Positions 6,886-39,411 of a DNA stretch of 64,000 nt are shown here, in pieces. The translations under genes and the position numbers were made by a program. Position 1 is the stretch's first letter. Every line of letters begins with the position of its first letter. The notes beneath the pieces were generated by a model, which was given only the letters and a program-made list of their open reading frames with translations, did not search any database and was not told where the DNA came from. This DNA comes from a virus. Lineage: Duplodnaviria > Caudoviricetes. The stretch is from the IMG/VR virus record IMGVR_UViG_3300042542_005523. One strand, given 5' to 3'.

Positions 6886-8307
6886 ATGGAGTCAGCAAGA
6901 AGAATAAAGGATTATCCAGAATTCATTAAATCAATCAGAATAAACGAGGCACTCAGTGTGGGGTCTGGTGAATTCTCGACTTTCACAGTGATAATGCTAA
7001 ACTGGTGTGGTTTTGAAAAAAATGGTTATGTAGATGCAAAATCTCCATTTGCAGAAACAGGAACATATGACCTGGTTTTTGACGCGAAAAACGCGATGAC
7101 GAACGCGAATGGAAAATATGGTATTTACACTAGTGTCTCCCCTCAAGACGGAGAATGTGTGTTTCAGGTCATAGTGCAAGGTGACTACCTAAAGGGTTTG
7201 ATTACAGGATCACAGAAGAAGATATTTAGAGGACCAAAGGCTAAAATACTGGGCGACATCTTATCGAAATTAAGAGAGAGGAGCGGGGGTAATTACCACG
7301 AAAGCCCTTTGTCGGGTGATAAAAAAGATGGATTTTACAAGTTCATCTATAAGATTAGTATGGAAGACCTGATTGAGATTATTCCGATTTGGTCTGATTT
7401 TATGAGCTATATTGGATATGCTCCGAAGAGTGAGATGAAAGCTAACAAGTCGGAAGAAGGCAGTTATTTCGGTCCAGGTATCATGGAAAATTTCCTTGAG
7501 CAATACAGGATAAATAACCCAAAGCTAAAGAGGCTAGAAGTTATTTTTCCGAAAGACTGGGACGAGTACGCTCTTCTTCAATGGGCTAAAGAAAATGGAC
7601 TAGTCGCCCCGATCTTCACGTCAATAAAAGAGGGGATCGAGTATATGAAATCCCTTGAGGGTTTTAAATTCGATGAGGTTCTGGTGGGATCTCATGGTTA
7701 CGATAGTGCGGCATATTCAGATATGCTAGGAGCAATAGTAGATCCAGGTAATTCAGATGCTGAAGTTCAGGAGGTCACGGGATTTCTAAAGCAACTGGCT
7801 AAAATAACAACGAAAGATAGCATTGTATATTTCACTTCTTGCCATGCCGGGAATAAAAAGGAAAGACTTGTTAGGGTAGCTGAAATTATAGGATGCACAG
7901 TTTATGGGTCAGAGGGGGTTAATTACCTAGGTTTTAATTCAGAGAAAGGTAAATTCTGGATGGCTAAAGCAGATGGCACTTTTGAGCTAACAGGAGATAA
8001 ACCTCCTTTCGTTATGGAATTTGACGAGGGTTCTTTTTTAAGCGGTGTATCAATGGTTGCTCAATCCGTGACATATGAACAGATGAATAAAATCAGAGAT
8101 TTTAGTAAATCCGTATCAAAAGAATGGGAAAAATTCGAAAAGAATCCATGGGGATATGTGGCAGACCCGTGTACTGAATACATAGAAAAAAAGGTGGAAG
8201 CATTCAAAAAAAATGCAGAGGGCTTATACAATCAGACCGGGAAGGCGATATCGGACACGTACAACCAGGCAGGGAAGGCTTTATCTAACATGTGGAACTC
8301 CTGGTGA
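6886..8307 (+). CDS. Hypothetical protein with DUF4347/caspase-like peptidase region
   Basis: VLVGSHG...IVYFTSCHAG His/Cys pattern; N-terminus RRIKDYPEF...INE. Confidence 0.45.
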   Translation: MESARRIKDYPEFIKSIRINEALSVGSGEFSTFTVIMLNWCGFEKNGYVDAKSPFAETGTYDLVFDAKNAMTNANGKYGIYTSVSPQDGECVFQVIVQGDYLKGLITGSQKKIFRGPKAKILGDILSKLRERSGGNYHESPLSGDKKDGFYKFIYKISMEDLIEIIPIWSDFMSYIGYAPKSEMKANKSEEGSYFGPGIMENFLEQYRINNPKLKRLEVIFPKDWDEYALLQWAKENGLVAPIFTSIKEGIEYMKSLEGFKFDEVLVGSHGYDSAAYSDMLGAIVDPGNSDAEVQEVTGFLKQLAKITTKDSIVYFTSCHAGNKKERLVRVAEIIGCTVYGSEGVNYLGFNSEKGKFWMAKADGTFELTGDKPPFVMEFDEGSFLSGVSMVAQSVTYEQMNKIRDFSKSVSKEWEKFEKNPWGYVADPCTEYIEKKVEAFKKNAEGLYNQTGKAISDTYNQAGKALSNMWNSW

Positions 8308-8337
8308 TTGGTACCAATATATAAATAGAAACAATAA

Positions 8338-9759
8338 ATGTTAAATCCAAGAATAAAAGACTTCAGAAGTTGGAAATCCCTAAACGAGGGATATTCCTTT
8401 AATTTCGATCCCAATGCTAGCTACCCAGATCCAGATTTCGGTCTTCAGAGTGGCAGTATAGATAGTGGAAAGGTAAACTATGGGGGTGACGGTAATAACT
8501 GGGGTGGCTCCATGGAAAGAGCCCTAGCATTTGCTAAGATAGCAAATGACTTCTCGGGGAAGAATATAATATCGTCTCAGAAAAGATCCAGGGTTAAAAC
8601 AGCTAAAGGAACTGTCTCAGATCACTACCAGGGTAAGAGTGATGCTTATGCTGTTGACCTAAGCTGTACAGGAACTAAGGGTGATCAATTACTAGCTCAT
8701 CTAATGAGCTGGTTCGGTTATCCAAGCTACACAGGCGGATATTGGCTGAATGTTAACAAGGGCGGATATAGATATCAGTTTGGCTGGAAGGTAAAGGATC
8801 ACTTCGATCACATTCATATAGGTGTTAAAAAGACGAGATCCAAAGACACGCCAACAAACAGTTCGGAGGTTGTTAACCCATATCCCGGCAAATCAACAGA
8901 AATGCAGGACGGAACTGTTGTTTATAAAGAGGAGAGAGGCGATCCATACGAGTATAAATTGATAGATGGCATATGGTGGACTAAAGGTCCAAGAATCCCG
9001 GAGTGGAAATCACTGGAGGACAATAAAGAGGCCAACGATATACTAGATTCTAGGTATGGGGTGAGGACAGAAGAGCAGATCAGAAAGAATAACGAGTTCT
9101 ATAAAAGAGATCCTGAGAAATATGGTATTTTAGGTGGTCTTTTTAATAAGGAAAAAAGAGAAAATTATATTCCAGGAAAGGATTCCACAATAAGTGTTCC
9201 TAAGAATATAAACGGACCAGTTTCAGTCTTGGTTTTTTATCCCGGTATAAAAGTAAACGGGCAAACGGGTAAATCTTATATGCCTCCTCTTATAAAAGAG
9301 GCAGTTCCGGATTGGTATGACAAATATGTTATAGTTATCCCAAATGAACACACAACAAAGTGGAAGGATGTTATTAGCGATGTGTCAGACGCTCTATTGG
9401 ATAACAATATGTTTAGTAAAAGCACATCGATAGGCATATTCTCAGGAAGCGGAAACAACAGGAGTTCTGGTGTTGTTGATGAGCTGATTGATATAAATCC
9501 AGAAAATCTGCTGCTAATGGATCCCACACCAGGGTCTGATTTAACTGAAGCTGTTGAAAGACTAGGCAGCAAGACACAAACTCTAATGATGTACAATCCA
9601 TCTGCTTGGACTGGCTATAAATGGTATCCTAAGTCAATAGAGAAGCTAAAAGACGCAGTTACTGCAGTCGGTGTGTGTGAAAAGACATCCACCCCACATA
9701 TGGAGATACCTGTTGAATTTCTTAAAAAATTCAGGACCCAGATAGAGAAGAACATATGA
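8338..9759 (+). CDS. Multidomain protein: M15-like Zn peptidase, small shared module, alpha/beta-hydrolase-like C-terminus
   Basis: SDHYQG...AYAVDLS...HFDHIHIG (H-x7-D...HxH); C-terminal VLVFYPG/GIFSGSG/LLLMDP. Confidence 0.55.
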   Translation: MLNPRIKDFRSWKSLNEGYSFNFDPNASYPDPDFGLQSGSIDSGKVNYGGDGNNWGGSMERALAFAKIANDFSGKNIISSQKRSRVKTAKGTVSDHYQGKSDAYAVDLSCTGTKGDQLLAHLMSWFGYPSYTGGYWLNVNKGGYRYQFGWKVKDHFDHIHIGVKKTRSKDTPTNSSEVVNPYPGKSTEMQDGTVVYKEERGDPYEYKLIDGIWWTKGPRIPEWKSLEDNKEANDILDSRYGVRTEEQIRKNNEFYKRDPEKYGILGGLFNKEKRENYIPGKDSTISVPKNINGPVSVLVFYPGIKVNGQTGKSYMPPLIKEAVPDWYDKYVIVIPNEHTTKWKDVISDVSDALLDNNMFSKSTSIGIFSGSGNNRSSGVVDELIDINPENLLLMDPTPGSDLTEAVERLGSKTQTLMMYNPSAWTGYKWYPKSIEKLKDAVTAVGVCEKTSTPHMEIPVEFLKKFRTQIEKNI

Positions 9760-29309: not shown

Positions 29310-29687
29310 ATGATACAGGACAAAGAAAATCAAACACCACCAATAGCTGCAGCTATCGTAGTAATGGCAATATTAATTGGAATCTCATTTGCTATTTTTA
29401 AAGCGGGGGAACGTGGAGCCTCCGATAAACAACATTATGAGCAACCCGCTATCTCAGACTCGGTAAAACCAGCTCCAGAACAACCCCATGAATCAAAGGA
29501 GGATAGTTTAATAAAACAGCTATATCCTATTTGTGTGGTTGAAGTAAATAAATCTACTCATAAAGAGTATAAGTGGGAAGTGGTAGCAGAGAATGGTTTG
29601 ATGTATTATACCAATAAGAAACCAAAAATTGGTGATCCTGCTTTTTATATCGGCAGTGACAGCGAAACGTTATATTGGACTAAATAA
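29310..29687 (+). CDS. Membrane-anchored hypothetical protein
   Basis: Single N-terminal TM helix. Confidence 0.7.
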   Translation: MIQDKENQTPPIAAAIVVMAILIGISFAIFKAGERGASDKQHYEQPAISDSVKPAPEQPHESKEDSLIKQLYPICVVEVNKSTHKEYKWEVVAENGLMYYTNKKPKIGDPAFYIGSDSETLYWTK

Positions 29688-29708
29688 GTTACGGATAAAG
29701 AAGAAAAA

Positions 29709-29834
29709 ATGGATCGAATAGAAATACACTGGATGACACTTATAGTAAGTACAGTCTTATTAGCGCTACTGTTAGCCCGTCTTATAAAGGAACACATACA
29801 GGAAAAGCGCTGGGAAAATAGAAATCGTAAATAG
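29709..29834 (+). CDS. Small membrane protein (41 aa)
   Basis: Hand-translated MDRIEIHWMTLIVSTVLLALLLARLIKEHIQEKRWENRNRK. Confidence 0.45.
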   Translation: MDRIEIHWMTLIVSTVLLALLLARLIKEHIQEKRWENRNRK

Positions 29835-29862
29835 AAAGTTACGGTACAAAGATAAAACAACT

Positions 29863-30048
29863 ATGGAGAAGTTAATAACGAAATTAAAGACCTTGCAAGA
29901 CAGGCAAAAGGAATTAATGTCTATGATGGCAGAAGAAAAGTATGACAATTTTATTTCCGTTTTAAGGGCTAAAGGATATGCTGATAGCATTATAGAATTA
30001 GAGGCAAAAATAGAAGTTTTAATGGATGCTATATCCATATTAAGATAG
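29863..30048 (+). CDS. Small coiled-coil hypothetical protein
   Basis: 61-aa ORF. Confidence 0.6.
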   Translation: MEKLITKLKTLQDRQKELMSMMAEEKYDNFISVLRAKGYADSIIELEAKIEVLMDAISILR

Positions 30049-30169
30049 CAGTAAAACAATATACATCGGTGTTACTGCGGGAATCACACATATATTTGCA
30101 AAATAAATTAAAAAAGGATCTGAAAAAGACCGAAACAAAAAAGAGAATCTGATATATAAAAACCAAACA

Positions 30170-30319
30170 ATGAGAAACACTCAGAAAAATATGGCAATTA
30201 TTAACCCGGCGAATCCGAAAGGATTTATCGCAGAGGCAGTGAAGCAGCAAGGCTTTTTTGCGTGGGAGAAAGGGATATGCCCAGGTCTGGAGTTTCGATT
30301 TAGTTTACAGGAAAGATAA
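30170..30319 (+). CDS. Candidate leader peptide 1 (49 aa) of tRNA array 1
   Basis: Hand-translated MRNTQKNMAIINPANPKGFIAEAVKQQGFFAWEKGICPGLEFRFSLQER; GATATATA at 30151-30158; overlaps attenuator segment A. Confidence 0.75.
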   Translation: MRNTQKNMAIINPANPKGFIAEAVKQQGFFAWEKGICPGLEFRFSLQER

Positions 30320-30376
30320 GATTTAAACTAAATATCACATTGAAACTCCAGATCGAAAGTCTGGAGTTTTTTTTTT
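30286..30376 (+). promoter_or_regulatory. Attenuator 1: mutually exclusive antiterminator (A:B) and terminator (B:C + T10)
   Basis: A TCTGGAGTTTC 30286-96; inner stem 30298-307/30324-33; B GAAACTCCAGA 30342-52; C TCTGGAGTTT 30360-69; T run 30367-76. Confidence 0.8.
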
Positions 30377-30380
30377 ACAT

Positions 30381-30454
30381 GGGGTTATAGCTTAAATCGG
30401 TGAGAGCGACGGTCTGAAAAACCGTAGATCCGGACTCGAGGCCCGGTATCCCCA
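30381..30454 (+). tRNA. tRNA-Phe(GAA), atypical T-arm
   Basis: Anticodon arm ACGGT-CTGAAAA-ACCGT; T-loop CTCGAGG. Confidence 0.75.
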
Positions 30455-30495
30455 CAAAAGAATCTGATCAACGGATTAGATGCAGAAGATTAAAT

Positions 30496-30569
30496 ACATC
30501 ATTGGTGAAATTGGCTAATCATCTTGGACTCCAAATCCAAGGTTCTGGGTTCGAATCCTAGATGGTGTG
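30496..30569 (+). tRNA. tRNA-Trp(CCA)
   Basis: TTGGA-CTCCAAA-TCCAA; canonical T-arm. Confidence 0.92.
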
Positions 30570-30602
30570 CAGAAATAAGTTCTTTGACATATTGGAAACC
30601 AT

Positions 30603-30675
30603 AATTCCTTAGCTCAGTTGGTAGAGCGCCTCCCTTACATGGAGGAGGCCGCAGGTTCGAGCCCTGCAGGGATTA
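30603..30675 (+). tRNA. tRNA-Val(TAC)
   Basis: CCTCC-CTTACAT-GGAGG; full cloverleaf. Confidence 0.93.
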
Positions 30676-30684
30676 CTTAATTAT

Positions 30685-30757
30685 GCTCGGTTCGTCTAGA
30701 GGCCTAGGACATCCCCCTTTCACGGGGAAAACATGGATTCGAATTCCATACCGAGTA
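30685..30757 (+). tRNA. tRNA-Glu(TTC)
   Basis: TCCCC-CTTTCAC-GGGGA; full cloverleaf. Confidence 0.92.
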
Positions 30758-30830
30758 CAAACATATTAAACAAGAAATTGCCTCGCTAAACTAACCAGGT
30801 TTAGCAAGACAAAAACAGGTTTAGCATAAT

Positions 30831-30918
30831 GACCTCGTGGCGCAATTGGTAGCGCAACTGACTTTTAATCAGTAGGGAAGCTGTATAGCCGTTGTGGGTT
30901 CGAGCCCCACCGGGGTCA
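30831..30918 (+). tRNA. tRNA-Lys(TTT) with 20-nt variable region
   Basis: ACTGA-CTTTTAA-TCAGT; variable region 30874-30893. Confidence 0.85.
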
Positions 30919-30924
30919 CTTTAG

Positions 30925-31033
30925 CGATGGTGGTAACGCGCTTTGAGGAGAAAGTAGCTTTGGACCTGCAAGTCCAGTCAAGCGAAGAGTATCCAATTAG
31001 GAGGATAATTCCACTCGTCACTTGCAGGTGACG
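30925..31033 (+). ncRNA. Candidate structured RNA with complementary hairpin loops
   Basis: Hairpins TGGAC-CTGCAA-GTCCA and CGTCAC-TTGCAG-GTGACG with complementary loops, plus two more stems. Confidence 0.55.
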
Positions 31034-31038
31034 TAAAT

Positions 31039-31112
31039 GGGGTAGTAGCTCAGCTGGTTAGAGCACATGACTGTTAATCATGTGGTCATAGGTTCGAATC
31101 CTATCTACCCCG
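31039..31112 (+). tRNA. tRNA-Asn(GTT)
   Basis: CATGA-CTGTTAA-TCATG. Confidence 0.95.
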
Positions 31113-31119
31113 CTAAAAA

Positions 31120-31192
31120 GCGGAAGTAGCTCAATTGGTAGAGCGCGGCCTTGCCAAGGCCGAGGTTGCCGGATCATTCCCGGTCTTCCGCT
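31120..31192 (+). tRNA. tRNA-Gly(GCC)
   Basis: CGGCC-TTGCCAA-GGCCG; T-loop ATCATTC. Confidence 0.88.
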
Positions 31193-31200
31193 CAAAAAAT

Positions 31201-31273
31201 GCGATAGTAGCTCAATTGGTAGAGCACCGTCCTTCCAAGTCGGGGGTCGCAGGTTCGAGCCCTGTCTATCGCT
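31201..31273 (+). tRNA. tRNA-Gly(TCC)
   Basis: Loop CTTCCAA; acceptor GCGATAG/CTATCGC. Confidence 0.92.
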
Positions 31274-31284
31274 CACCCAAAGAT

Positions 31285-31356
31285 AGCGAGGTAGCTCAGA
31301 GGCAGAGCAACCGACTCATATTCGGTAGGTCAGGATCTCGGAATTCCTCCTCGCTA
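31285..31356 (+). tRNA. tRNA-Met or Ile2 (CAT), atypical T-arm
   Basis: ACCGA-CTCATAT-TCGGT; T-loop CTCGGAA; lacks initiator hallmarks. Confidence 0.72.
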
Positions 31357-31362
31357 CTATAT

Positions 31363-31433
31363 TGTCCCTTCGTCTAAGGGCAGGACAGCTGATTTTGATT
31401 CAGCTAATGGTGGTTCGAATCCATCAGGGACAA
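31363..31433 (+). tRNA. tRNA-Gln(TTG)
   Basis: GCTGA-TTTTGAT-TCAGC. Confidence 0.92.
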
Positions 31434-31444
31434 CAATTTAAAAT

Positions 31445-31519
31445 ACTCAGGTAGCTCAATTGGTTAGAGCACCTCGCTGATACCGAGGAGGCCTGAAGGT
31501 TCGAGTCCTTCTCTGAGTA
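31445..31519 (+). tRNA. tRNA-Ile(GAT)
   Basis: CCTCG-CTGATAC-CGAGG. Confidence 0.92.
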
Positions 31520-31526
31520 CTTAATT

Positions 31527-31601
31527 CGGGATGTAGATCAGTTGGATTAGATCGCCTGGTTTGGGACCAGGAGGCCGCAGGTTCGAGTCCTGCTATCCCG
31601 A
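31527..31601 (+). tRNA. tRNA-Pro(TGG)
   Basis: CCTGG-TTTGGGA-CCAGG. Confidence 0.94.
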
Positions 31602-31608
31602 CTAAAAT

Positions 31609-31681
31609 GGGCCGGTAGCTTAAGAGGCTAAAGCGCTGCACTTGCAATGCAGAATATTGGGTTCGAGTCCCACCGTGTCCA
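31609..31681 (+). tRNA. tRNA-Ala(TGC), irregular acceptor stem
   Basis: CTGCA-CTTGCAA-TGCAG; G3-U70 identity pair present. Confidence 0.82.
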
Positions 31682-31689
31682 CTAAATTT

Positions 31690-31762
31690 GCTCTCATAGC
31701 TCAATGGTCAGAGTCGGACGCTTATATCGTCAAGGTTGCAGGTTCGAGTCCTGTTGGGAGTA
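31690..31762 (+). tRNA. tRNA-Ile(TAT)
   Basis: GACG-CTTATAT-CGTC; canonical T-arm and acceptor. Confidence 0.85.
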
Positions 31763-31889
31763 CAAGTTTCCAATATAAAATTAAAAGTTCATCTGGTTTT
31801 CTGCGGAATCCTGTTCTATATTTGTAAAGTAATTAAAAACTTAGGCATGAAGGAAGGAAAGGAGTTTAAACTAAAAAAGGGTAACTAGA

Positions 31890-31988
31890 ATGGATCAAAT
31901 CGGACACGTCGTTCTCTTTACAATAATAGGATTGCTAATAGCAATGTTAGTATATCTAGCGGCATGGCAACCTAAAAAATGGAAATAA
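31890..31988 (+). CDS. Small membrane peptide (32 aa)
   Basis: Hand-translated MDQIGHVVLFTIIGLLIAMLVYLAAWQPKKWK. Confidence 0.45.
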   Translation: MDQIGHVVLFTIIGLLIAMLVYLAAWQPKKWK

Positions 31989-32210
31989 TGGGATACTGGC
32001 TCTGGGCAGATTGAAAACACACAGGTTAAAATCCTGTACTGATTACAAAAATAAAACCTCAACAAATAAAGTTGTGAGTTGTATTGAAATAGCCAATTAT
32101 AAGCCAACATAAAGCTGTTGGGTGCAGATGGAGTAATTAACCAGGAGCGCAGGCACTGATTGTGACGGTACAACAAATACCCCTCTGAGTTTGGGTTTTA
32201 TTTTAAATAT

Positions 32211-32308
32211 AGTTAGGTGGCGGAATGGTAGACGCACAAGACGGGCGATGCATTTAAAACAGAAATAAGCCTGGTCGGTTTTTACAGGTTCGAATCCTGT
32301 CCTGACTG
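32211..32308 (+). ncRNA. tRNA-like element 1 (48-nt central insert, no anticodon loop)
   Basis: AGTTAGG-TGGCGGAATGGTAGACGC-[insert]-ACAGGTTCGAATCCTGT-CCTGACT-G. Confidence 0.78.
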
Positions 32309-32321
32309 CTAAAAGAAAGTT

Positions 32322-32564
32322 ATGAATAAAATAGAGAATTACAATTTTGACAAAAATGATTGGGCACATTTCCATGATGTTATTTTAGATGTGACTTGGA
32401 ATGATGGTAAAGTGAATCTAAATCAAAAAGAAATGGAACAATTATTTTGGGAGTTACCAGAAGATATGAGAATTGATGCTCAAAAATATGGTATGAATGA
32501 TACACCTTGGAGAGATAGTCTGCGGGTATGGTATGAACGAAATAAAATGGGTAAGACTGTTTAA
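32322..32564 (+). CDS. Hypothetical protein
   Basis: 80-aa ORF between tRNA-like elements. Confidence 0.7.
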   Translation: MNKIENYNFDKNDWAHFHDVILDVTWNDGKVNLNQKEMEQLFWELPEDMRIDAQKYGMNDTPWRDSLRVWYERNKMGKTV

Positions 32565-32579
32565 TTGGTTATAAAACAT

Positions 32580-32698
32580 AGTCAGGTGGCGGAATTGGTA
32601 GACGCTGCTGTGGGGCGACACCACTCTTTTAAAAACAGCATAAGCTCTTGCAATGATGTACACATTGCAAGGTACAGGTTCAAGTCCTGTCCTGACTA
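32580..32698 (+). ncRNA. tRNA-like element 2 (68-nt central insert)
   Basis: Same scaffold; TGCTG/CAGCA stem with expanded loop and 9-bp CTTGCAATG/CATTGCAAG arm. Confidence 0.78.
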
Positions 32699-32700
32699 CT

Positions 32701-32779
32701 CTGGGCTCAGTAAAGCCTCTTATCGTAAGATAACGTAACTGAAGTGGATAACCTAGAAATAGGTGACGCTCCACTATGG
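32701..32779 (+). ncRNA. Candidate structured RNA with two GNRA hairpins
   Basis: TTATC-GTAA-GATAA inside TCAGT/ACTGA; ACCTA-GAAA-TAGGT inside AGTGGA/TCCACT. Confidence 0.55.
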
Positions 32780-32859
32780 AGTCAGGTGGCGCAATTGGAA
32801 AACGCAACTCGCGGTGTACACAGAGGAGTGAATTACAGGTTCGAGTCCTGTCCTGACTA
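32780..32859 (+). ncRNA. tRNA-like element 3 (29-nt central insert)
   Basis: Same scaffold; ACTC/GAGT stem with 15-nt loop. Confidence 0.75.
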
Positions 32860-32861
32860 CA

Positions 32862-33070
32862 CGTTCCGACTAATCATCGGATAGTATGCCTCATACGATG
32901 AGAAGTGGTGTGATAGCCACAGAGGAGAGTTGAAGGTTCGTATATACAAACCTTCCAGTTGACTACTGACGTCGGTAAAACCCTTCACGAGGGGAGCAAG
33001 ACAGTCTATTCCTAACTCAGCAATGAGGACAGCCATATCACCTGTAAGTTGGATAAATTAGGGTGTTTTT
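32862..33070 (+). ncRNA. Candidate multi-hairpin structured RNA (about 205 nt)
   Basis: At least six hand-found hairpins and long-range CCGAC/GTCGG and TAGT/ACTA pairings; no ORF. Confidence 0.55.
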
Positions 33071-33074
33071 ATAT

Positions 33075-33237
33075 AGTCAGGTGGCGGAATTGGTAGACGC
33101 TATCGTACTCAAGTAAGGCAAAGCAATGTAGATGAAACGTCGTCGCATGGTGAGTTAACACCTAAAAGTCTTTGGACTTGAAATCCAAAAAACCTTGAGT
33201 ATGTTCTACGATACAGGTTCGAATCCTGTCCTGACTA
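33075..33237 (+). ncRNA. tRNA-like element 4 (112-nt central insert)
   Basis: Same scaffold; insert closed by TACTCAAG/CTTGAGTA; contains TTTGGA-CTTGAAA-TCCAAA. Confidence 0.78.
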
Positions 33238-33262
33238 CAAAAATTAAAATCTAAGGTAATAA

Positions 33263-33544
33263 ATGAAATGCTACGAATGTAAACACAGAGGAAATGTAAT
33301 AGGCTCAGCTCATAGCAGCTGTGGTGTTATCAGAAGCACAGGTAGTGAGAAGGGACAGGAGTTAGAATTCATGCTGGCGATGGGGCAGGTCGAAATGAAA
33401 GATCAAGATGGTAACCCTATTGTTGATATAGACCCTCATGGTATTCAAAACGGATGGGCTGCTTGGCCTATAGATTTCGATCCAGTTTGGATAAGATCCT
33501 GTAAATTCTATACAGAAAAAGAGAAAACAGGTGAATTGAAATAA
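33263..33544 (+). CDS. Cys-containing hypothetical phage protein
   Basis: CYECKHR...SAHSSC...GWAAWPIDFDPVWIRSC. Confidence 0.75.
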   Translation: MKCYECKHRGNVIGSAHSSCGVIRSTGSEKGQELEFMLAMGQVEMKDQDGNPIVDIDPHGIQNGWAAWPIDFDPVWIRSCKFYTEKEKTGELK

Positions 33545-33553
33545 ATAACATAT

Positions 33554-33627
33554 GCTACCGTGGTGTAACTGAATAACACGTCTAACTACGGATTAGAAGA
33601 GCGAGGGTTTGAATCCTTCCGGTAGTA
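33554..33627 (+). tRNA. tRNA-Arg(ACG)
   Basis: TCTAA-CTACGGA-TTAGA. Confidence 0.9.
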
Positions 33628-33685
33628 CAAAAAATAATCGAAATTAGAAGAAACAAAAAGATGTTCTGATATATAATAACATAAT

Positions 33686-33778
33686 ATGAAAAACTTGATC
33701 CATACATCCTTACATTTATCCACCACGAGTACCACTTGTGATTCGGATTTATTGTGGAGGAGGCTAATGGATCAATAA
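33686..33778 (+). CDS. Candidate leader peptide 2 (30 aa) of tRNA array 2
   Basis: Hand-translated MKNLIHTSLHLSTTSTTCDSDLLWRRLMDQ; GATATATA at 33668-33675. Confidence 0.78.
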   Translation: MKNLIHTSLHLSTTSTTCDSDLLWRRLMDQ

Positions 33779-33830
33779 TAATATTGAATTTTGATTCTGA
33801 AAAAGCCTCCCCTAAAAAGGAGGCTTTTTT
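33755..33830 (+). promoter_or_regulatory. Attenuator 2: antiterminator (A:B) versus terminator (B:C + T run)
   Basis: A GGAGGCT 33759-65; inner TCAATA-ATAA-TATTGA; B AAAAAGCCTCC 33800-10; C GGAGGCTTTTTT 33819-30. Confidence 0.8.
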
Positions 33831-33860
33831 ATTGGCTCTTTGATTTATTAGATTTAACAC

Positions 33861-33944
33861 GGAAGAGGAATCACAGCGGCCTGTGAGCTAGTCTTGAAAA
33901 CTATGCGTACCTCCGGGTATTGGGATCGACACCTACCTCTTCCG
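33861..33944 (+). tRNA. tRNA-Ser(TGA), 8/4 acceptor/T-stem type
   Basis: GGAAGAGG/CCTCTTCC 8 bp; T-stem TGGG/CCTA 4 bp; loop CTTGAAA; 6-bp D-stem; variable arm. Confidence 0.8.
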
Positions 33945-33952
33945 CTTTTTCC

Positions 33953-34028
33953 GGGGCCTGTGGTGTAATGGCTTGCATAACACACTGTCACTGTGTAGGT
34001 CGGGGTTCGAATCCCCCAGGTCCCGCCA
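33953..34028 (+). tRNA. tRNA-Asp(GTC), 8/4 type, encoded CCA
   Basis: GGGGCCTG/CAGGTCCC 8 bp; GGGG/CCCC T-stem; ACACA-CTGTCAC-TGTGT; G73 then CCA. Confidence 0.85.
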
Positions 34029-34030
34029 AT

Positions 34031-34118
34031 GGAAGATGATCCTAAACGGAGATAGGATCCGCCTGCTAAGCGAGATGTTCGGGTAAAACCGGATGAGGTT
34101 CGATCCCTCCGTCTTCCG
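34031..34118 (+). tRNA. tRNA-Ser(GCT), 8/4 type
   Basis: GGAAGATG/CGTCTTCC 8 bp; GAGG/CCTC T-stem; loop CTGCTAA; variable arm. Confidence 0.8.
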
Positions 34119-34123
34119 CAAAC

Positions 34124-34196
34124 TCCAGAGTAGCTCAATTGGTAGAGCCCTTGTTTTGTAAACAAGTGGTTGTCGGTTCGATTCCGTCCTCTGGAT
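34124..34196 (+). tRNA. tRNA-Thr(TGT)
   Basis: CTTGT-TTTGTAA-ACAAG. Confidence 0.92.
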
Positions 34197-34201
34197 CTAA
34201 T

Positions 34202-34274
34202 GACACCGTGTCTGAATGGTTTAGGTCCAGGTCTGCAAAACCTTGGTACGTGGGTTCGAATCCCTCCGGTGTCT
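34202..34274 (+). tRNA. tRNA-Cys(GCA)
   Basis: Loop CTGCAAA; acceptor GACACCG/CGGTGTC. Confidence 0.9.
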
Positions 34275-34280
34275 CTATAT

Positions 34281-34355
34281 GGTGTCTATAGTGTCAGCGG
34301 TATAGCACGACGGGTTGTGGTTCCGTTAGCACCAGTTCGAATCTGGTTAGACACA
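34281..34355 (+). tRNA. tRNA-His(GTG)
   Basis: ACGGG-TTGTGGT-TCCGT; G-1 encoded, discriminator A rather than the usual bacterial C. Confidence 0.88.
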
Positions 34356-34362
34356 CTAATAA

Positions 34363-34447
34363 GCCCCGGTGGCGAAACAGGCTATACGCACCAGACTTAA
34401 GATCTGGCGATCAGTGAATCGTGTGGGTTCGAATCCCACCCGGGGTA
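34363..34447 (+). tRNA. tRNA-Leu(TAA)
   Basis: CCAGA-CTTAAGA-TCTGG; variable arm. Confidence 0.93.
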
Positions 34448-34479
34448 CATAATTTTTTGTACTTTGATATATAGGTATT

Positions 34480-35079
34480 ATGATTGAAGGATACAAAAAA
34501 TACCAAAACGGATTTGTCAAAGACCCAGCTTCTTACTTGTTAAAAGAAGAAGAAAACGTTACTGCCAGCACAAGCCTGGTAACACCGAAAACTCTTAATG
34601 ATTTTTCGGAATCAATATCATCCTCCCTGAATGAGAGAATCGGTGACGAGTATGCTGCTCACTATTTCTATAGAAATGCTGCCAATTGGTGTAAAAATGT
34701 CAATTATAAAAATGCCACAGCATATTTTGAAGCTGAGGCTGCCAGCGAATTAGATCACGCTAAGGGATTACAAGACTACCTGACACAGTGGAACCTAATG
34801 CCTGCTATTCCTGCTGCTCCAACGCAGCATTCTTTTGAAAATCTAGCAGATATTATCAATAAGGCTTACGAGATAGAGTATGAGTTAATGCTTAAATACT
34901 CCGACAATCAAAAAGAGTTCTTAAATGATCACCCAGCAACTTTCAATTTTATTCAGAAATATGTTGATATACAGAATGAAGCTGTTGCTGAATACTCGGA
35001 TCTTTTAAATGCTCTTAATCTAGTGGACATCAACAATAGATTGGATGTCCTTTACTTCGAGAACAATTACTTCGGATAG
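34480..35079 (+). CDS. ftnA: Non-heme ferritin
   Basis: ERIGDEYAAHYFY...EAASELDHA...EIE...QNEA ferroxidase-centre pattern. Confidence 0.8.
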   Translation: MIEGYKKYQNGFVKDPASYLLKEEENVTASTSLVTPKTLNDFSESISSSLNERIGDEYAAHYFYRNAANWCKNVNYKNATAYFEAEAASELDHAKGLQDYLTQWNLMPAIPAAPTQHSFENLADIINKAYEIEYELMLKYSDNQKEFLNDHPATFNFIQKYVDIQNEAVAEYSDLLNALNLVDINNRLDVLYFENNYFG

Positions 35080-36465: not shown

Positions 36466-37224
36466 ATGGCATATAGAATTCTTTTTCGTAGAGACACAGC
36501 AGCTAACTGGGCGACTAATAACCCTGTTTTATCTGCAGGTGAACCTGGATTTACAACAGACACAAACATATTTAAAATAGGAGATGGCGTTACCGCTTGG
36601 TCTTCCCTTCAGGATATAAATCCTGCAGGAGTAACCGGTCCAACTGGTGATGTTAATTTCGATAATATAGCATCCGACGTTATTGCTTCTGCCGATGCTA
36701 CTTATAATCTAGGAACTCAAACCTATCAATGGAATAACCTTTACGTTGCGGGCAGCATGTATCTTGGGGATTCCACTGTTACAGTATCTGGTTCTGGAAC
36801 TAATTTTATATTAGCAGGTGGAACAGGAAATCAGATAACTGGAAATCTTGAAATATCTGGTAATCTTACCGTAAACGGGACTACTAATATTAGACCGTAT
36901 AAGGTATATTCCGCTCTGGTTTCTCAGACGTCCTCTCTAGATCCAACAGATTTAGTTTTAGAAAGCACTTTCAATAGCACATTAACTTGGAACAGAGATT
37001 ACACGGGTAGATACACAGTTTCTTCTTCTACGGAGTTTACGATGGATAAGGTATTTGTGATGTTCTCACAGAATGCTGCTCTAGCCACTTCAACGACACC
37101 TTGTCATTATAATTGGCAGTGGTACGATTCAAGCACGCTGTATGTTGAATCTTTAAATGTTACGGGGGCTACAGCGGATAACCTTTTCTCTGCTACTTCG
37201 GTTGAGATTCGAGTTTATAATTAA
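36466..37224 (+). CDS. Tail fibre/collar-type structural protein (Mtd/hyaluronidase N-terminal-like domain)
   Basis: RRDTAANWATNNPVLSAGEPGFTTDTNIFKIGDGVTAWSSL. Confidence 0.75.
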   Translation: MAYRILFRRDTAANWATNNPVLSAGEPGFTTDTNIFKIGDGVTAWSSLQDINPAGVTGPTGDVNFDNIASDVIASADATYNLGTQTYQWNNLYVAGSMYLGDSTVTVSGSGTNFILAGGTGNQITGNLEISGNLTVNGTTNIRPYKVYSALVSQTSSLDPTDLVLESTFNSTLTWNRDYTGRYTVSSSTEFTMDKVFVMFSQNAALATSTTPCHYNWQWYDSSTLYVESLNVTGATADNLFSATSVEIRVYN

Positions 37225-37260: not shown

Positions 37261-39411
37261 ATGTATTATTGCGATAAGATTTTAATGGAGAAAGAATATA
37301 TGGAAAATTACGAGGAAGACTATGATCTAAACCTTTCGCCCTCTAACAAATACGGGGACGACGAAGACGATGACACACCAACAGGTGGTTTCAAATCATC
37401 GCAGAATAAATCATCAAAAACACCTGCACTAGACACCTATTCGAGGGATCTGACAGCTATGGCTGCTAGGGGTGAACTCGATCCTATTATAGGAAGAGAT
37501 CACGAGATCGAAAGGGTGTCCCAGATTCTATGTAGAAGAAAAAAGAACAATCCGGTTCTAATAGGAGAACCCGGTGTTGGTAAATCAGCAATTGCAGAAG
37601 GTATCGCCATCCGAATAGTTCAGAGAAAGGTTTCGAGGAATCTTCTTAATAAAAGGATCATTAGTCTGGACATTGCCTCGATTGTGGCCGGTACTAAATA
37701 CAGGGGTCAGTTTGAGGAAAGAATGAAGGCTATCATCGAGGAGCTAAGAGACGATCCTAGTGTGATCATCTTCATTGATGAAATCCACACTATGGTTGGA
37801 GCAGGTGGAGCATCCGGATCCCTTGACGCTTCGAATATGTTTAAGCCTCCTCTTGCTAGGGGTGAACTCCAATGCATAGGTGCCACAACCCTAAACGAAT
37901 ATAGACAGCATATTGAGAAGGATGGAGCTTTGGAAAGAAGATTCCAGAAAATCATCGTGGAAGCTCCAGATGCTGATACGACAATCAAGATCCTCAATAA
38001 CATCAAGTCTAAATACGAGGACCACCACAACGTTACTTACACAGAGGATGCTATTCTAAATTGTGTTAAGCTAACAGAGAGATACATCACCGATAGAAAT
38101 TTTCCAGATAAGGCACTAGATGCTTTAGACGAGGCAGGATCAAGAACACAGCTAACAGAAGTTAAAGTTCCTGATGCAATCAAGAACCTAGAGAAGAATC
38201 TTGATAATATTCACATTGATAAAAAAGACGCAGTCACTAAACAAGACTACGAAGCTGCTGCTAAATTCAGGGACTTAGAAAGAAAGATCAGAGTTAATTT
38301 GGAGCTGGAACAGAAAAACTGGGAGAGTAAACTTAAGGAAGATCGAAAAGTGGTTGATGGAGATAAGGTAGCCGAGGTAGTTTCGATGATGAGTGGGGTT
38401 CCTTTGAAAAAAGTAACACAGGAGGAGAATGAAAAACTTGCTAATCTTGGTCCGGATCTTAAATCTAAAGTGATAGGGCAGGATCCAGCTATCGAGAAAA
38501 TAGCAAAGGCTATTCTTCGTAATAGAATGGGACTAAAAGATCCTAATAAACCAATTGGCTCCTTTATATTCCTAGGTCCTACAGGGGTTGGAAAGACTCA
38601 ACTTGCCAAAGAATTGGCAAAACAATTATTCGGGGATGCCGATGCTTTAATTAGAGTCGATATGAGTGAGTATATGGAGAAGTTTAACTCAACTAAACTC
38701 ATTGGCGCACCTCCGGGCTATGTTGGTCACGAAGAAGGTGGGCAACTGACAGAAAAGGTTAGAAGAAAGCCATACTCGATAGTTCTTTTCGATGAGATTG
38801 AAAAAGCACACCCGGATATCTTTAATTCTTTGCTTCAAATTCTGGACGAAGGTTTAATAACCGACGGTCTCGGCAGAAAGATTAACTTCAAGAACACCTT
38901 GATTATTCTGACATCCAACGTGGGGCAGAGAAAACTAAATGAGTTTGGATCTAGCATTGGATTCTCTAAGGACAAGGCGGAGAAGGCAAAAATAGAAGGC
39001 GAGATCCTACTTAAGAAAGAGCTGGAAAAAACATTTTCTCCGGAGTTCTTAAACAGACTTGACGAGATCATCTACTTTGATCCGCTGGCTAAGGAAAACA
39101 TTATTAAGATCCTTGATGTCGAATTGGATATAATGAAACCTAGGTTTGAATCAATTGGTATTAAAATCAAGATAACTGACACATTAAAAGAGAAGATAGC
39201 TGAGGTTGGCTACGATCCTAAATTCGGTGCTAGACCACTAAAAAGAGTTCTTCAGAAATACGTAGAAGACACTGTTGCTGAAACAATGATCAATAATAAG
39301 ATCAATCCAGGCGATACCTTTACCCTTGACTTTGATCCTAAGAAGGAGGGAACGACTTCTACTCCGGTAAAAGTTAAAATAACCGCCAAAAAACAGAAAC
39401 CAACTGAGTAA
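37261..39411 (+). CDS. clpC: ClpC-like AAA+ chaperone lacking the Clp N-domain
   Basis: Two Walker A motifs (GEPGVGKS, GPTGVGKT), UVR-like middle domain, IGFS loop; acidic N-terminal extension; true start may be M9 or M14. Confidence 0.88.
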   Translation: MYYCDKILMEKEYMENYEEDYDLNLSPSNKYGDDEDDDTPTGGFKSSQNKSSKTPALDTYSRDLTAMAARGELDPIIGRDHEIERVSQILCRRKKNNPVLIGEPGVGKSAIAEGIAIRIVQRKVSRNLLNKRIISLDIASIVAGTKYRGQFEERMKAIIEELRDDPSVIIFIDEIHTMVGAGGASGSLDASNMFKPPLARGELQCIGATTLNEYRQHIEKDGALERRFQKIIVEAPDADTTIKILNNIKSKYEDHHNVTYTEDAILNCVKLTERYITDRNFPDKALDALDEAGSRTQLTEVKVPDAIKNLEKNLDNIHIDKKDAVTKQDYEAAAKFRDLERKIRVNLELEQKNWESKLKEDRKVVDGDKVAEVVSMMSGVPLKKVTQEENEKLANLGPDLKSKVIGQDPAIEKIAKAILRNRMGLKDPNKPIGSFIFLGPTGVGKTQLAKELAKQLFGDADALIRVDMSEYMEKFNSTKLIGAPPGYVGHEEGGQLTEKVRRKPYSIVLFDEIEKAHPDIFNSLLQILDEGLITDGLGRKINFKNTLIILTSNVGQRKLNEFGSSIGFSKDKAEKAKIEGEILLKKELEKTFSPEFLNRLDEIIYFDPLAKENIIKILDVELDIMKPRFESIGIKIKITDTLKEKIAEVGYDPKFGARPLKRVLQKYVEDTVAETMINNKINPGDTFTLDFDPKKEGTTSTPVKVKITAKKQKPTE

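Follow-up and report, generated by a model that had tools for sequence, protein, structure and literature searches.

In E. coli, attenuation at pheST through the pheM leader controls an aminoacyl-tRNA synthetase in a cellular setting and responds to a single amino acid. tRNA genes are usually regarded as promoter-controlled. Among the amino acid operons of enterobacteria, leader-peptide attenuators include trpL, hisL, leuL, and pheL, together with the multivalent thrL and ilvL (theory in PMC1183508). The locus described here lies on a 64,000-nucleotide stretch of DNA (the window), a fragment of a freshwater phage from a lake metagenome. We consider it likely to be a ribosome-mediated leader-peptide transcription attenuator of the trp type, which governs a phage tRNA operon and feeds back on tRNA supply.

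Common to the locus and to the known leader-peptide attenuators are a short translated ORF with regulatory codons (translation at the locus being inferred), alternative 1:2, 2:3, and 3:4 helices, and an intrinsic terminator. The predicted logic is also that of the classical systems, in which a stalled ribosome leads to read-through and full translation to termination, with the terminator as the thermodynamically stronger structure. Classical attenuators control biosynthesis or synthetase genes, sense one to three amino acids, reside in cellular operons, and are covered by the Rfam leader families, whereas the locus has tRNA genes as its target, would sense six amino acids (12 in the sister leader described below), resides in a phage, has a near-leaderless start without a Shine-Dalgarno sequence, and has no sequence or model similarity to those families. 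The pheST attenuator resembles the locus in acting on a component of the translation apparatus rather than on a biosynthetic pathway. The classical scope, in which the regulated genes encode amino acid biosynthesis enzymes or synthetases, does not apply here, and the locus would be a variant of the known attenuator mechanism with tRNA genes as the regulated target. We found no description of leader-peptide attenuation of tRNA genes in full-text literature searches, whose coverage was incomplete, leaving absence unproven.

T-boxes resemble the locus in that they read the status of a tRNA for a specific codon/anticodon and switch between a terminator and an antiterminator. Unlike it, they bind uncharged tRNA directly without a ribosome, carry conserved Stem I and T-box motifs that are absent at the locus, and control synthetase and amino acid genes. 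An Rfam scan revealed no known leader, T-box, or sRNA family above threshold. The best of the leader families (Trp, His, Leu, Thr, Phe) was Phe_leader, with 27.7 bits against a cut-off of 55 (E 0.16), and the T-box model RF00230, with its Stem I specifier loop and T-box antiterminator, had no match at E ≤ 1 within 29500–35000. In mycobacteria, leaderless polycysteine short ORFs are reported to act as Cys-responsive attenuators (bioRxiv 10.1101/834739). Like the locus, they have little or no 5' UTR and make downstream expression depend on the codons of a small ORF, and they differ in responding to one amino acid, in belonging to cellular cysteine-metabolism operons, and in using another downstream mechanism.

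The leader ORF (33686–33778, plus strand) starts with an ATG at 33686 and stops with a TAA at 33776–33778. Its 30 codons encode MKNLI, an 18-residue core, and WRRLMDQ before the stop; like all other leaders found, the ORF begins with A-rich codons and lacks a Shine-Dalgarno sequence. The core (codons 6–23, 33701–33754) reads CAT ACA TCC TTA CAT TTA TCC ACC ACG AGT ACC ACT TGT GAT TCG GAT TTA TTG, containing only His, Thr, Ser, Leu, Cys, and Asp, the six amino acids served by the tRNA genes downstream of the leader. All four of its Leu codons are TTR, and the sole CTA sits outside the core. A first-pass annotation had claimed 18 consecutive array-matched codons with exclusively TTR codons for Leu; we recovered codons 6–23 exactly as listed there, and the Leu claim proved correct as well. 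Located directly 5' of the matching array, this 18-codon run has no equal among set-matched runs in the six reading frames of the window, where the runner-up has 10 codons. The expected number of runs of at least 18 codons in the window is 1.4e-4, and 30 shuffles reached a maximum of 13. Five of the 18 core codons (TCC twice, ACC twice, and ACT) need four-way U34 wobble. The locus thus has two of the features that place a sequence among leader-peptide attenuators, namely a short ORF that begins with a start codon 5' of the regulated genes, in what would be the transcribed leader, and clustered regulatory codons that correspond to the products of the operon (18 in-set codons, with a codon-level match across loci).

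Downstream of the leader up to 34448, the genes are tRNAs only. Six canonical tRNA genes at 33953–34448 on the plus strand were identified with ARAGORN and Rfam as Asp(GUC), Ser(GCU), Thr(UGU), Cys(GCA), His(GUG), and Leu(UAA). They are preceded by a divergent tRNA-Ser(UGA)-like gene of 82 nt (33862–33943, plus strand), located between the terminator and tRNA-Asp, which folds as a long-arm cloverleaf with the anticodon loop CUUGAAA. The D arm consists of a 6-bp hairpin whose loop has 4 nt, and the T-loop sequence is AUCGACA. ARAGORN made no call for this element, and even at E ≤ 10 no Rfam tRNA model matched; the element aligns with Ser(UGA) homologues in the contigs L214, L215, and L019, and its homologues in the megaphage records scored 46 bits on the tRNA-Sec model. 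In the megaphage records L214 (3001–3267) and L215 (3001–3180), a divergent Ser(UGA)-like gene, a canonical Ser(UGA) gene, and a Ser(GCU) gene stand in tandem behind a Ser/Arg-only leader, revealing that the divergent gene is conserved beside a normal copy. The seven tRNAs counted in the first-pass annotation are, in our hands, six canonical genes and a seventh that is a divergent tRNA-like element unrecognized by any tRNA model. The only RNA-labeled sequencing runs contain 6–12% of the words of the stretch, and these are probably conserved parts of tRNAs.

A tRNA-Arg(ACG) gene at 33554–33628 lies just 5' of the leader at 33686–33778, the second in the window, and outside both attenuators; the two Arg codons in the leader's tail are both AGG and unreadable by this tRNA. 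The 93-amino-acid ORF upstream of the leader had no relatives in IMG/VR, a synteny search with the ferritin gene returned 14 loci, none with tRNAs, and in a blastn search, what the region shared with GenBank phages was limited to single tRNAs and the Ser-like element. Elsewhere in the window, four elements at 32211–33237 have tRNA-Leu-like acceptor, D, and T arms, with unrelated inserts of ~30–110 nt replacing the anticodon arm; they scored 25–43 bits as tRNA in Rfam without an ARAGORN call, and L223, the closest relative, has a comparable 3' block at about 8270–8950. The tRNA-Lys(UUU) genes at 30831–30919 of the window and at 953–1221 of L214 measure 81–89 nt, too long for class I, with an unexplained extra arm or insert. 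At 36466–37221 and 37261–39411, a gene whose product has the N-terminal domain Mtd_N (major tropism determinant), suggesting a possible target of a diversity-generating retroelement, adjoins a full-length gene for a ClpB-like double AAA+ chaperone, an unusual phage cargo.

Between the leader ORF and the tRNA genes lies a strong intrinsic terminator (33800–33830, plus strand), composed of a B arm (33800–33810), a loop (33811–33818), a C arm (33819–33829), and a T run ending at 33830. The B core is AGCCTCC (33804–33810), the C core is GGAGGCT (33819–33825) followed by T6, and the full stem comprises 11–13 bp. An intrinsic terminator in this position is a further feature expected of the class, and the stem and T run meet it. 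Segment A (GGAGGCT, 33759–33765), the 5' strand of the antiterminator, sits inside the leader ORF, 5 nt past the end of the run. Because A is an exact copy of C, the 3' arm of the terminator, it competes for B; the competition between A and C for B past the run end at 33754 had been proposed in the first-pass annotation and is supported here by sequence and folding. The A:B duplex has a predicted energy of −14 kcal/mol, equaled by 0.5% of shuffles of the region (P = 0.005).

Folding of the untranslated RNA paired region 1 (33707–33714), a segment of the run, with 33753–33761 in both the minimum free energy and the centroid structures. This 1:2 helix sequesters A, and the terminator forms with a probability of 0.97. 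Inside the run, folding also predicts the hairpin reported earlier, with 7 bp between CACGAGU and ACUUGUG (33724–33740), which possibly serves as an RNA polymerase pause hairpin. With a ribosome stalled in the run, an inner helix of the antiterminator (33769–33797) forms between GGAUCAA (33769–33775) and UUGAUUC (33791–33797) and encloses the stop codon. The stop codon had earlier been placed in a TCAATA/TATTGA hairpin, which remains one possible inner helix, but folding prefers the GGAUCAA/UUGAUUC pairing around it.

We then folded only the RNA 3' of the ribosome, masking the rest. With the A site of the ribosome at positions from 33695 to 33743, the probability of the antiterminator was 0.83–0.98; with the A site from 33746 to the stop codon, the probability of the terminator was 0.96–0.97. 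These results were stable at footprint edges of +12, +14, and +16 nt. The predicted window for a productive stall coincides with the matched run except for the last 3–4 run codons, which fall beyond it, and all six amino acids are present within it. An antiterminator that excludes the terminator and is masked once the ribosome passes the regulatory codons, another hallmark of the class, is thus present, on computational evidence only. The sequence-level predictions of a ribosome-mediated attenuator that can be computed were all met.

These data suggest a mechanism in which coupling between the ribosome and RNA polymerase and the direction of the response in vivo are inferred. Transcription would begin just 5' of the ATG at 33686, and a ribosome would load at once. 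If the whole run were decoded fast, the ribosome would cross A and reach the stop codon; with A covered, B would pair with C, and RNA polymerase would terminate at the T run (33825–33830). If any of the six amino acid or isoacceptor classes were scarce, the ribosome would stall within 33695–33743, leaving A free to pair with B as it emerges. No terminator would then form, and the polymerase would enter the Ser-like, Asp, Ser, Thr, Cys, His, and Leu genes. Since a stall at any scarce class would free A, the device would combine the tRNAs of its own array in an OR gate and provide negative feedback on decoding capacity. The tRNAs of the array are probably transcribed only when ribosomes read the codons of the run slowly, although no expression data are available.

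Natural variation gave a consistent picture in a small sample. Contigs from other lake samples showed five kinds of difference in the leader region. A change of A to G at 33718 converts TTA to TTG, which remains TTR, and a change of C to G at 33723 converts ACC to AGC, substituting Ser for Thr within the set, in a codon read by Ser(GCU). A 1-nt deletion at 33789 falls in the inner loop of the antiterminator, a change of T to A at 33798 lies immediately 5' of the terminator stem, and two further variants lie 5' of the promoter-like motif. None of the variants breaks a helix or an in-set position, and all apart from the two codon changes are located in spacers.

The window carries two tRNA arrays, and the other is preceded by a putative sister attenuator (30170–30376, plus strand). 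Its leader ORF spans 30170–30319, and its 32-codon core contains every one of the 12 amino acids of array 1 (30381–31763) and no others. The match becomes complete once a Met(CAU) gene at 31285–31356 (Met or Ile2) is counted, which was missed by ARAGORN and scored 50 bits in Rfam. This 32-codon run is the longest of its kind in the window, followed by one of 19, with an expected number of 2.4e-5. When each core was matched to the set of the other array, 0 of 18 and 0 of 32 residues fitted.

A comparison with other phages was made on contigs with tRNA arrays, gathered via a neighboring protein, via a 15-nt pattern of the Ser(UGA) anticodon arm, and from two megaphage GenBank records. The regions upstream of the arrays, 352 of them distinct and 313 scorable, were scored by the longest stretch, inside an ORF beginning with ATG, of amino acids that the following array serves. 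Array-matched leaders at E < 1e-2 were found in 15 of the 313 scored regions, compared with a mean of 0.71 and a maximum of 4 in 200 permutations of the sets and 0 in the reverse complement. In L152, the core TQFTQFTQP precedes tRNAs for Pro, Phe, Thr, and Gln; in L160, TSTYCTSTWQET precedes Tyr, Trp, Cys, Ser, Thr, Glu, and Gln; in L163, QQQQ precedes two Gln genes. Cores of the SSSRSSS type stand before Arg and Ser genes (L102, L214, L215), CLLSFSSLL before two Leu genes, Phe, Cys, and Ser (L172), and SQPSQASQLPSGS before Val, Pro, Leu, Ser, Gly, Gln, and Ala (L116). L126 and L156 also show a match between leader and array, and L224 is a weaker case.

Within the protein-sharing group of the window, L019 carries two arrays of different composition, each preceded by a leader whose core matches it. 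One leader precedes Ile, Asn, and further genes through Cys, and the other has a 14-codon core with all ten of Ser, Asp, Val, Glu, Thr, Lys, Met, Ala, Gly, and Leu. In the closest relative (G001/L223), the array is partitioned differently, and the leader, which cannot be aligned with that of the window, holds all ten amino acids of its array with two exceptions in 15 codons. Some arrays, such as array B of L223, have no leader. The comparison with phages whose arrays differ had been put forward in the first-pass annotation, and independent contigs do carry leaders that match their own sets. Together, a core of array amino acids before a terminator, a segment A after that core, and covariation among phages are all present. 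ORFs of ~180–200 codons are inserted between array tRNA genes in L019 (1140–1679) and L224 (about 2520–1930, minus strand); they are Cys/His-rich, resemble homing endonucleases, and separate the leader from part of the array.

The match extends to the level of codons. Leu codons fit the Leu anticodons of the array in 18 of 19 cases within runs and in 5 of 35 outside them: arrays with only Leu(UAA) are preceded by TTR, arrays with only Leu(UAG) by CTN, and arrays with both anticodons by both codon types. For Arg, the codons fit the array anticodons in 6 of 6 cases in cores and in 3 of 21 outside. The AGY Ser codons of the megaphage leaders are also matched, because a Ser(GCU) gene missed by ARAGORN is present at L214:3181–3267; His and Trp genes were likewise recovered.

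Every leader that has a terminator also contains, 12–25 nt past the core and before the stop codon, a segment complementary to the terminator's 5' arm. In the other loci, equilibrium folding with the complete terminator was uninformative, favoring termination at every ribosome position, and for this reason the model, like that of trp, rests on co-transcriptional kinetics. We used transcripts truncated before C as a proxy for folding during transcription. By this proxy, the last codon that leaves A free falls within a mean absolute offset of 2 codons from the run end in 18 leaders, a fit reached by random placement in 0 of 10,000 trials (P < 1e-4). The three large outliers have cores that are cut short, that of L214 by tRNA genes missed by ARAGORN. 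This modeled agreement between run end and switch point is predicted by a ribosome-based sensor and by none of the other models. Overall, the earlier reading of the locus as an attenuator is supported by its ORF, in-set run, terminator, exclusive antiterminator, covariation, and run-end geometry.

The start of the transcript is inferred from a promoter-like motif, TGATATATAAT (33667–33677, plus strand), which lies 9 nt before the ATG. Its core, TGATATATA, occurs in 7 copies in the window versus 2.1 expected, each 5–20 nt 5' of an ATG, including those of both leaders and of the ferritin gene after the array. The broader motif TTTGAYATATWG, with the core TGATATATA or TGACATATTG, occurs on both strands, always 5–25 nt from the ATG or tRNA 5' end that follows it. 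Its sites in the window are 5828, 5867, 22712, 26513, 30150, 33667, and 34465, along with 30582; those in relatives are L019 950 and 2967, L223 6150, and L224 2766. The motif is a candidate phage promoter or processing signal. Judged by its letters alone, TGATATATA reads like an extended −10 element with near-leaderless transcripts, and its placement at 33667–33677 implies a very short 5' UTR or a leaderless transcript, a reading that fits because the first codons are A-rich and no Shine-Dalgarno sequence is present. A sigma-70 promoter scan revealed nothing exceeding shuffle expectation. Relatives show Bacteroidota-type TTG...TAnnTTTG boxes, and the tRNA-Thr resembles that of Cellulophaga phages; from these two observations, a Bacteroidota host appears likely.

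The same motif is relevant to an alternative that we regard as unlikely, in which the attenuator is real but senses host amino acid starvation through uncharged tRNA or merely modulates an array driven mainly by internal promoters of the TTTGAYATATWG type. In addition to its position before seven ATGs, the related form CTTTGACATATTG occurs inside array 1 at 30582 and also just before tRNAs in relatives, and a degenerate copy of TTTGAYATATWG, CTTTGATTTATTA (33838–33850, plus strand), was spotted by eye in the gap that separates the terminator from the first gene; it has too many mismatches for the scan, which allowed 2. These two copies may allow part of the array to be expressed independently, and if the motif is a promoter, the attenuator modulates rather than gates. 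However, the copy at 33838–33850 has a T in place of the A of the −10-like core, and in most other leaders the first tRNA lies only ~5–25 nt from the T run, leaving no room for a promoter. As for starvation, leader-peptide attenuators do sense charged tRNA, and sequence cannot distinguish tRNA abundance from charging; the physiological trigger is an inference. The tracking of TTR versus CTN Leu codons with the anticodons present nevertheless points to tRNA species rather than amino acids, and the isoacceptor-level match favors tRNA species as the input.

Three further readings would dispense with a translating ribosome as the sensor or with regulation altogether, and all three were rejected on the evidence. 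That the ORF is untranslated and the hairpin a mere terminator of the upstream unit (ORF 33263–33544 and tRNA-Arg), with a coincidental or compositional codon match, seems very improbable to us. There is indeed no direct evidence of translation and no Shine-Dalgarno sequence, and the terminator has an A tract that could let it act in both directions, but the run is unique in the window, it recurs elsewhere with covarying content and no counterpart in the reverse complement, and the frame, start, stop, and A-segment geometry are kept in 18 leaders. Very little likelihood also attaches to an RNA-only, T-box-like sensor that binds tRNAs directly and treats the codons of the run as successive specifiers. 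In its favor, these codons are complementary to the anticodons of the downstream tRNAs, but the matches are confined to one frame between the ATG and the stop, the run end and A are a ribosome footprint apart, riboswitch models including the T-box gave no match, and there is no conserved bulge for binding the tRNA acceptor. Small phage proteins are common, and the peptide could in principle be the product, with the terminator simply ending its gene. We find this scarcely credible, as leaders of related phages are unconserved in sequence except for matching their own arrays and as a Thr-to-Ser change, within the set, is tolerated.

The ribosome-mediated attenuator, if it holds, would explain how phages time and dose their tRNA arrays and would connect phage tRNAs directly, and in a testable way, with the depletion of tRNAs in infected cells. 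It would extend multivalent attenuation from 1–3 to 6–12 amino acids. It also yields an annotation rule that works from sequence alone, in which the leader core predicts the tRNAs of the transcription unit, including divergent ones that programs miss; the rule correctly predicted the Met(CAU) gene in array 1 and the Ser(GCU) gene in a megaphage record.

Infected cells lose tRNAs through host shut-off or through anticodon-nuclease defenses. We tentatively raise the possibility, which we hold to be less than even, that several phage lineages carry isoacceptor-resolved sensors of the decoding pool, as the sensing arm of a counter-defense that replaces exactly the tRNAs under attack. If this were true, each block of tRNA genes would be turned on only when one of its own codons is read slowly, and the functional cargo of an array could be read from its sequence, including non-canonical tRNA-like genes such as that at 33862–33943.
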